From: a virus
Virus genome (UHGV): UHGV-0118722
Reading direction: 5' to 3' (one strand)
Length of the DNA: 10,622 nucleotides
Part shown: positions 594-1,542 of the stretch, in pieces
Position numbering within the stretch: position 1 is the first letter of the stretch
Layout of the letters: each line of letters begins with the position of its first letter
Translations under genes and position numbers: made by a program
Notes under the pieces: model-generated
Told to the model about the DNA's origin: nothing
What the model saw: only the letters and a program-made list of their open reading frames with translations
The model's database searches: none

Positions 594-828
594 TGTGGCG
601 AACCCGTCCGGAGCGGTGCGGGCAACAGATGTTATGGTAAATTAGGCGCATGATAACTCATTCCGTATATATTATTTTCTTTAGTAACGTATGGACAGGA
701 TATTGGTAAATGGATTCAGTAAAAAAAACGGGATTGATGAAGCTGAAATGCAGACTTATATATCCACGGTTCAGAATCTGGTAGTGCATCCAATTAGTAG
801 AGCATGTGTTTTTCGATAAACGCTCCGA

Positions 829-1226
829 TCACTTTTTCGTGGATCTCAACTGAGCGTGAGAAGCAGATTGTTTTTTACGAGCCAACCGCTTAATGCGGGT
901 GCGTAGCGTCAGATTATTACGCTCGATGCGTTGGGGGAATATTTTGCCGGTCAGATGCTTATTCTTCGGCACCACCCGGCCATAGCTGCCCCTGTCATCG
1001 CTGGTGAGCATGCCGATGTTGAAGGGTGTAAGCAGTGCCAGTAGCTCCCGGCACGTTTGATCGGTTCGGGGACCAAAAGTGTAGGCCAGTACACCGCCTG
1101 TTTTGGTGTTGTACGCGTACCAGAGCCAGTGTTGCCGGCAACGTAGCTCCATTGTTCATCAAGCTCGCAGATAAGCGCCACATCAGCATGGGCAACAGGC
1201 GAAGAAGTTATTCGCGTTGGCGCGAG
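829..1226 (-). pseudogene. insB: IS1 InsB-like transposase gene disrupted by a frameshift
   Basis: The InsB-like sequence is split between two minus-strand frames: ...ALICELDEQWSYV (ORF 951..1181) and RQHWLWYAYNTKTGGVLAYTFGPRT...RIERNNLTLR (ORF 829..1152). IS1 InsB reads continuously ...[28 protein letters not shown]...RIERHNLNLR. The frame therefore breaks near 1125-1150. Confidence 0.7.
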
Positions 1227-1480
1227 TTTTTTAAAGTCCGGATGACGGTGTTAATACCAATTTTCAGTGTCCTGGCGGTATCGCGAACCCCGGCACCATT
1301 AAAGGCCATTTCAGTGATCAGCTCTTTCATACCCGGCTTACGTGCTTGATAAGTATAAGTGAGCTGAAACACACGGTGGCAGTCACGGCAGCGAAATCTG
1401 TCACGGCCTTTAGGGTTCTGACCATGGCGGTAAACCCGAGCTAACTGACAACGGGGACAATGAATATTAACGCTGGCTAT
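1208..1480 (-). pseudogene. insA: IS1 InsA-like gene, 91 codons, lacking a canonical start (ATA where IS1 has ATG)
   Basis: Translation ...ASVNIHCPRCQLARVYRHGQNPKGRDRFRCRDCHRVFQLTYTYQARKPGMKELITEMAFNGAGVRDTARTLKIGINTVIRTLKNSRQRE aligns with IS1 InsA (MASVSISCPSC...LKNSGRSR) at roughly 45% identity. The first codon is ATA and the frame has no in-frame ATG, GTG or TTG upstream before a TGA. The A6C slippery site is at the reverse complement of 1226-1232. Confidence 0.7.
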
Positions 1481-1542
1481 GAGATAACCTCAAAAGCCCG
1501 TATTATACATCAGATTCAACTAATTAGAGGCATCACCAGAAA

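Follow-up and report, generated by a model that had tools for sequence, protein, structure and literature searches.

A defective IS1-family element at the boundary of ColE1-type plasmid DNA and a P1-like phage-plasmid backbone in virus genome UHGV-0118722

Introduction

Virus genome UHGV-0118722, examined here as a stretch of 10,622 nucleotides (the window), carries at the end of a P1-like darA operon a degraded element of the IS1 family of insertion sequences (ISs), and the question raised by this locus is how a broken IS that lacks a target-site duplication came to lie exactly there. A sequence-only reading had taken the element for an old, dead copy rather than a recent hop and, pointing to an IS1 in the corresponding part of P1, had proposed either an ancient insertion shared by the lineage or a preferred insertion site. 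Comparison with public records identifies the element and its lesions, and it reveals flanks from two kinds of replicon, a mosaic IS haplotype and a site distinct from that of the IS1 in P1. As judged from these comparisons, the missing duplication appears to mark the seam of a small mobilizable plasmid and a P1-like phage-plasmid, and not the age of the IS.

The element is a broken copy of a known IS1-family IS

The element at 780–1537 genuinely belongs to a known IS of the IS1 family, of which it is a broken copy. Its single megablast match in the phage collection was the 766 bp element of Escherichia phage Rac-SA53 (KU052037, positions 14749–15514; 96.5 % identity), which the depositor annotated as an IS1-family mobile element with an 8 bp duplication and with 'IsEc30' in the transposase note. 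The name ISEc30, where used for the window element, is the depositor's label on the Rac-SA53 copy and does not come from comparison with an ISfinder reference. ISEc30 is listed among the members of the IS1 family (PMC12077207), and the intact InsAB' of the Rac-SA53 copy scores 260 bits against the NCBIfam model NF033558 'IS1 family transposase' (cut-off 100).

The IS1-like ends and the A6C heptamer described in the sequence-only reading were both verified. The element has the size and the ends of the family, whose members are about 740–800 bp long and have imperfect inverted repeats of ~23 bp starting GGT(G/A)ATG. Its right inverted repeat (IRR) begins GGTAGTG at 780 and its left inverted repeat (IRL) ends CATCACC at 1537; read on the minus strand, the element starts GGTGATGCCTCTAATTAG at 1537 and finishes ...TAATTGGATGCACTACC at 780. 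IRL and IRR match one another at 17 of 23 positions, and IRL matches that of canonical IS1 at 15 of 23. The single IRR difference from the Rac-SA53 copy, at position 802, is a marker of the small-plasmid lineage described below. At the insA/insB' overlap, the A6C motif TTAAAAAAC is unchanged in the window copy, the Rac-SA53 copy and the IS1 of P1. The gene order of the family, insA (zinc ribbon and helix-turn-helix) followed by insB' (IS1-type DDE) in the −1 frame, is present as remnants only. In Pfam, the open reading frame (ORF) remnants match Zn_ribbon_InsA (6.5e-19) and HTH_Tnp_IS1 (3.3e-30), and a stitched insB' protein matches DDE_Tnp_IS1 (6.7e-67); with such E-values, the IS1-family features are not due to chance.

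The lesions reported earlier, an InsA starting with ATA and a frameshifted InsB, were both found. insA starts with ATA at 1480–1478 where the intact relative has ATG, an in-frame TGA stop lies four codons 5' of the ATA, and the ATA start is common to all small-plasmid and P1-lineage copies examined. ATA is an allowed start codon in translation table 11. Moreover, the Prokaryotic Genome Annotation Pipeline calls an otherwise intact ATA-start copy (NZ_CP073010, 1809–2503) a transposase and, hence, the ATA alone is weak evidence of a dead element. In insB', 10 bp (GCAGTAAAGC) present in the intact copy are missing between 1139 and 1138, an A-run is expanded by 2 bp at 875–876, and tryptophan is replaced by arginine next to the DD motif (993). 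Because of the 10 bp deletion and the 2 bp insertion, a tblastn alignment of the intact InsAB' with the window is split over four frame segments, and the window copy encodes no functional InsAB' transposase that would make it autonomous. The copy is thus dead through its frame breaks and not through its ATA start. Identical lesions were found in copies from many independent public records, and the element is coding-dead, non-autonomous and not a fresh simple hop. To this extent the earlier description of a dead copy holds, while its use of the missing duplication as a sign of age does not.

The flanks derive from two replicons

The 8 bases flanking the element are CAGAATCT on the left and AGAAATGG on the right, bearing out the earlier statement that there is no target-site duplication. 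The 8–9 bp duplication of a simple insertion is therefore lacking from the window; duplications of 8 bp are present around intact or near-intact copies of the same IS elsewhere. Window positions 1–790 are 99.9 % identical to the mbeD region of the 5101 bp ColE1-type mobilizable plasmids CP057261 and CP057279, and the match to these plasmids extends to 1537, taking in the same dead IS with the same left junction. From 1539 (equivalent to P1 24146), the window is P1 backbone, 98.2 % identical to P1 and with Pfam matches to ddrB-ParB, DarA_N/C and Resolvase. P1 24146 lies 13 nt past the isaB stop and 5 nt ahead of the darA-operon hairpin. Both junctions fall at the terminal bases of the IS, which is thus located exactly at the boundary of the DNA of the two replicons, and the target duplication is absent because each flank derives from a different molecule.

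That the end of the element at 1537 abuts the hairpin which the sequence-only reading called the operon's terminator was confirmed: the stem starts 5 nt away, inside the darA-operon terminator that AJ000741 annotates in P1 at 8032–8105 (window ~1534–1607). The hairpin is stable and is formed in both the minimum free energy and the centroid folds. Its tail, AUUUCU, where an intrinsic terminator would have a U-tract, is followed by IS sequence, the fold z-score is only −1.3 (111 nt region), and a simple consensus terminator scan did not call it, the sole call of that scan lying within the IS. Rfam, applied to the window in full, matched no family at the gathering score.

Table 1. Features of the window, with positions numbered from the first letter of the 10,622 nucleotide stretch
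Feature	Position	Strand	Basis
ColE1-type mobilizable small-plasmid DNA, mbeD 3' end and downstream non-coding	1..779	+	identity to CP057261, CP057279
Defective IS1-family element (ISEc30-like), 758 bp	780..1537	−	nucleotide identity to Rac-SA53 copy; IS1 Pfam domains in ORF remnants
IRR, right terminal inverted repeat, + strand GGTAGTGCATCCAATTAGTAGAG	780..802	−	one mismatch (802) to intact Rac-SA53 copy
insB' remnant, interrupted by 10 bp deletion and AA insertion; W to R at 993	826..1232	−	tblastn of intact InsAB'; column-wise comparison
insA remnant, 90 codons, ATA replacing ATG at 1480–1478	1208..1480	−	Pfam Zn_ribbon_InsA and HTH_Tnp_IS1
A6C programmed −1 frameshift motif AAAAAAC, intact	1226..1232	−	TTAAAAAAC
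IRL, left terminal inverted repeat GGTGATGCCTCTAATTAGTTGAA	1515..1537	−	same as intact Rac-SA53 copy at every base
P1-like phage-plasmid backbone: hxr, ddrB, ddrA, darA, hdf, lysis genes, cin, tail-fibre fragment	1538..9994	−	P1 identity
darA-operon terminator hairpin	1543..1572	−	perfect 10 bp stem, 1543–1552/1563–1572

The IS of the window is a patchwork of two haplotypes

When the window was compared with the P1-lineage contig L007 (window 780–7958, 7179 bp including the IS), the two were 99.875 % identical, and eight of the nine differences fell inside the IS (binomial P about 1e-7). Similarly, ten of the 11 differences between the first 1537 bp and the small plasmid L003 are inside the IS. 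Six independent records (L004, L007, L008, L022, L031 and L032) agree on the P1-lineage haplotype at these positions, and at all 18 positions that differ between the two haplotypes the window has one or the other state, arranged in seven alternating blocks with no private change. A single-crossover model of the IS chimera was rejected, given the seven blocks. Using L024 and the Rac-SA53 copy as outgroups to assign ancestral and derived states, the window was found to have derived states in common with the small-plasmid lineage at 1155, 936, 925 and 802, and with the P1 lineage at 993 and 875–876. As derived states from both lineages are present, at least four switches are needed.

A four-gamete test applied to ten other public copies found 26 of 378 site pairs to be incompatible, for example the 10 bp deletion against lineage markers, and exchange is thus not peculiar to the window contig. 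The IS copy of the plasmid CP057733 (L005) lacks the 10 bp deletion and has a GG insertion of its own (alignment columns 571–572); it shares 287 G and 338 T with the Citrobacter small-plasmid copy L024, which is further evidence of exchange between replicon types.

Both junctions of the window have precedents

The dead IS with the same two small-plasmid junctions recurs in PLSDB plasmids of 3.5–9.6 kb and in 11 metagenome contigs. In the 9.6 kb Citrobacter plasmid NZ_CP073010, a 766 bp copy with the ATA start and no indels occupies the same site and is flanked by the 8 bp duplication CAGAATCT, NZ_CP073941 has the matching empty site (GGTTCTGAATCTTCATGC), and in the 5.1 kb plasmids 200 bp adjoining IRL have been lost. 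Hence, the position in small plasmids is a primary insertion site, and the adjacent deletion occurred later. A G-run at window 345–354 varies among near-identical small-plasmid copies (354 is G or A in comparison with L003, and there is a 1 nt indel in comparison with L020) and is either a hypervariable homopolymer or sequencing noise.

On the P1 side, most P1-like plasmids are without an IS at the point where the IS of the window meets the terminator, and this junction was found in only six PLSDB records, which represent three distinct plasmids. The arrangement in this P1 sub-lineage is ompC-upstream sequence ending ...GTATAAAACACG, the IS, then AGAAATGGCTTGC, the hairpin and hxr, and the IS lies between hxr and an ompC-type porin gene. 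It is carried by CP057733 and three sister records of the same size, by P1 fragments in AP018397 and CP034659, by the IMG/VR contigs L007, L008 and L009, and by the gut-metagenome contigs L031 and L032, both of which also have the IS903-truncated tail-fibre gene of the window. The P1-lineage copies likewise lack a target duplication and, hence, the left side was rearranged after insertion. On the same ground, the idea was rejected that the IS had simply inserted into a P7-like ancestor and that its duplication could still be recovered. In L005, 79 bp to the left of the IS are absent from P7, and 482 bp of P7, including the 3' remnant of isaB, are missing. This plasmid (146 kb, IncY, typed 'MOBP,MOBP') was also considered as a complete example of the same fusion and rejected, as its mob genes lie in a separate IS91-bounded segment.

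Three further observations were made on these relatives. In AP018397 (L004, 202 kb) and CP034659 (L022, 455 kb), both large multi-replicon plasmids, an isolated P1 fragment consisting of ompC, the dead IS, hxr and a truncated ddrB is bounded by IS5, IS3 and IS26, indicating that a piece of P1 was captured by conventional plasmids. Just 100 bp separate the ISEc30-like copy of L007 from a canonical IS1 end (…ATCAGTAAGTTGGCAGCATCACC) on its left (positions 1–157), at the place taken by the ompC-type porin gene in relatives, and two distinct IS1-family elements are thus found within 100 bp in the variable region of P1. In L031 and L032, a large internal deletion fuses ddrB to darA to form an ORF of 693 aa.

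How the join may have arisen

The best explanation, on which we regard the evidence as evenly poised, is a real fusion of small-plasmid DNA and a P1-like replicon by homologous recombination across the passive dead IS. Two parts of this explanation are inferred: the physical existence of the join, and its origin by homologous recombination instead of transposition. The IS would first have inserted into a ColE1-type mobilizable small plasmid, making an 8 bp duplication, and the small-plasmid copy would then have lost 200 bp of adjoining DNA and gained its internal lesions. A copy of the ATA-start lineage would also have become resident in a P1-like sub-lineage, 5 nt from the darA hairpin in the variable region RD-2, with the ompC-type porin gene opposite. 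The two resident dead copies could then have recombined by a RecA-type homologous mechanism that left conversion patches, fusing the replicons, one reciprocal exchange being enough to give small-plasmid DNA on the left of the IS and P1 DNA on the right, and the patches may reflect heteroduplex repair or repeated fusion and resolution. The contribution of the IS would have been limited to some 760 bp of portable homology, with no active transposition. As both junctions pre-existed, no new transposition into either replicon is required.

Several points weigh against such a fusion. The source of the window is a short-read metagenome contig (ENA ERZ1755931 NODE_2375; 12,346 bp, SPAdes-style naming, 13.8x coverage), of which the window is bases 1–10622 in reverse, and chimeric contigs classically arise through shared IS copies. 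The combination of small-plasmid DNA, the IS and P1 DNA was absent from INPHARED phages, PLSDB and IMG/VR viral contigs and was unseen in RefSeq complete E. coli, GTDB representatives and metagenome contigs, though the full three-part arrangement was not tested in each of these, and the reciprocal junction was not found in IMG/VR viral contigs. A haplotype-specific InsB fragment of 107 aa is on record, by exact-protein look-up, for the source contig of the window only. The contig stops 2.5 kb into small-plasmid DNA, with any second IS copy or whole integrated plasmid lying beyond view. Finally, one crossover would give an IS of two blocks and not of seven.

The strongest rival, which we consider possible though on balance doubtful, is an assembly chimera, in which a Mob plasmid and a P1-like plasmid with the ompC, IS and hxr arrangement were separate and each had a dead IS copy of its own, the assembler crossed the collapsed IS repeat, and the resolution of bubbles made part of the mosaic. 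The metagenomic SPAdes-type source, the failure to see the arrangement in any collection searched and the missing reciprocal junction all count for this rival, as does the fact that ompC lies across the IS in all of the closest relatives of the P1 part, the two that share its IS903-truncated tail-fibre gene among them. The IS of the window, having no private change, is an exact mixture of two known haplotypes, and, of the six haplotype switches, four have spacings above 55 nt and could be independent bubble choices. Against this, assemblers normally break at a 758 bp repeat with two paths in and two out, and a multicopy ColE1-type plasmid should win every bubble, which would be expected to leave a uniform small-plasmid haplotype and not an alternating one. 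Two haplotype switches have spacings of just 36 and 49 nt; with k=55 (a value that is assumed), these distances would fit inside a single k-mer, and recombinant k-mers must then occur in real reads. In addition, the same contig was reported for two samples, and complete records other than this one show real exchange between such copies.

A transposition cointegrate is improbable. Here, an intact chromosomal relative acting in trans, or residual expression from the ATA, would have mobilized the small-plasmid IS, which would have moved replicatively into the P1 terminator region to give P1 DNA, an IS, the small plasmid, a second IS and P1 DNA again; the window would represent one junction of this primary cointegrate, from which the P1-lineage copies could also descend. 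The element has kept both of its ends intact, and IS1-family elements are known for cointegrate formation (PMC9603915). ATA-start copies are found at two different precise end-junctions and, hence, the ATA lineage has moved at least once. E. coli chromosomes contain many intact relatives (at up to 40 or more places in a single record), and 11 of the 18 positions that distinguish the haplotypes have the ancestral state in the window. However, the junction of the IS with P1 is base for base that of the ompC-type P1 lineage, and the backbone is near-identical to the ompC-type relatives and shares their later IS903 insertion, which indicates that the window is derived and not ancestral. The IS also has the derived states of the P1 lineage (993 A and the additional AA), unexpected in a fresh small-plasmid copy.

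Returning to the fusion by homologous recombination, a broader claim would be that the ColE1-type plasmid/P1-like phage-plasmid fusion via the dead IS is genuine and that, as the mosaic haplotypes of the window and of other records would then indicate, this dead IS is a recurrent docking site at which replicons fuse and resolve, and this we put forward tentatively, at slightly short of even confidence.

The IS1 of P1 lies elsewhere

As the sequence-only reading stated, P1 has an IS1 between ssb and hxr (AF234172, 22626–23393), located between isaA and isaB. It is not at the equivalent place. The IS1 of P1 lies 752 bp to the left of the point equivalent to the junction (about P1 24145/24146), with isaB in between, and is a simple insertion with its own 9 bp duplication, TGCCCTCTG. 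The two elements share 52 % nucleotide identity in a MAFFT alignment, and blastn of the window IS with the IS1 of P1 gave no alignment at all. Neither P1 nor P7 has an IS at the junction point, where homologous isaB-type sequence reads through. With the insertion junctions compared in this way, the proposal of an insertion point identical to that of the P1 IS1 was rejected.

The isaA-IS1-isaB interval (P1 21,540–24,243) corresponds to variable region RD-2, or region 2, of P1-like plasmids (PMC6906374, PMC9603915), and both IS sites lie in AT-rich target DNA (32–39 % G+C). The idea of a preferred insertion site survives only loosely, in that both insertions are in AT-rich, variable RD-2, and not in the sense of a shared point. 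An ancient IS1 insertion inherited in the P1 lineage or sharing the point used in P1, its duplication eroded with age, can be set aside as highly improbable even though the IS1 of P1 lies in the same ssb-hxr interval, recognised as variable and AT-rich, and in the same orientation, since its identity is 96.5 % with the ISEc30-labelled copy and only 52 % with that IS1, whose site is 752 bp distant and whose duplication is intact, P1 and P7 read through, the junction is confined to six PLSDB records, and the flanks, 99.9 % identical to present-day replicons of two kinds, are not eroded.

Other features of the contig

The source contig extends 1.7 kb past the left end of the window, into a relaxase gene, and then ends. 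In this part of the contig (positions 11200–12346), identity to the 5.1 kb small plasmid L003 falls abruptly from about 100 % to about 85–90 % beyond ~1.25 kb, inside the relaxase gene, which points either to a ColE1-type backbone that is itself mosaic or to another switch made in assembly. In the lysis-gene region, L007 (7337–7987) has about 30 extra bases relative to window 7957/7958.

At the other end of the window, an IS903-like element of the IS5 family, 93 % identical to the IS903 of HK022, starts at 9995 (GGCTTTGTTGAATAAATC) and runs past the window end (10622). It truncates the tail-fibre ORF (9009–10004), the stop codon of which (10002–10004) is inside the IS. The same truncated product of 331 aa is on record in at least ten contigs, those listed being mostly from human-gut metagenomes. 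The last ~420 bp of the tail-fibre ORF (9577–9994) are not P1-like; they are 92–95 % identical to tail-fibre genes of the P2-like phages P88, pro147 and PhiR68_1 and are shared with P7, a similarity that suggests exchange of a host-range module.

Significance and comparison with known systems

Much of what is described here is already known, namely the IS type, the RD-2 hot spot, the presence of IS-bounded plasmid fragments in P1-like plasmids and the lesions, which are in public records. The main use of the result lies in annotation and in caution over metagenome contigs, and the lesson is that a missing target duplication beside a degraded IS need not mean age, as here it marks a junction of two replicons. 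The only mildly interesting aspect is the dead IS as the seam of a possible Mob-plasmid/phage-plasmid fusion. If the fusion is real, the phage-plasmid would gain an oriT/mob module and the small plasmid would ride in P1 capsids, and if the join is physical it would be a small documented example of plasmid/phage-plasmid exchange through passive IS homology. Such exchange currently attracts attention for its bearing on gene flow and on how P1-like elements spread resistance genes.

Among known elements, the ISEc30-labelled copy of Rac-SA53 resembles the window element over its full length, with the same IRL, an IRR that differs at one base, and the same A6C site and insA/insB' layout, but the window copy has the ATA, the 10 bp deletion, the 2 bp insertion and the tryptophan-to-arginine change, and lacks the 8 bp duplication. 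The copy in the ColE1-type plasmid pRHB31-C01_4 (CP057279, 5101 bp) shares the left junction, …CCACGGTTCAGAATCT followed by IRR, the ATA and the 10 bp deletion, and is 99.3 % identical over window 1–1537; it differs in that its right flank is small-plasmid DNA (CAGTGAGATTT…) and not the P1 terminator, and the small-plasmid haplotype is without the AA insertion and 993 A and has seven private changes. The IS1 of P1 is of the same family and of similar length, has GGT(G/A)ATG termini and the A6C motif, points the same way with respect to the darA operon and is located in RD-2, whereas its sequence, its site and its status as a simple insertion with a duplication set it apart.

The closest known parallels to the arrangement itself are pSvP1 and pTZ20_1P, in which IS-bounded plasmid fragments are found in P1-like phage-plasmids and for which RD-2 was noted as a common region of difference (Venturini et al. 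2019, PMC6906374). In these, as in the window, foreign plasmid DNA meets the P1 backbone at IS ends without direct repeats. However, theirs are ISEc84, IS26 and similar ISs bounding large F-type or resistance segments, whereas in the window, where the join is known from the contig alone, the partner is a ColE1-type Mob plasmid and the IS at the boundary is a dead IS1-family copy.

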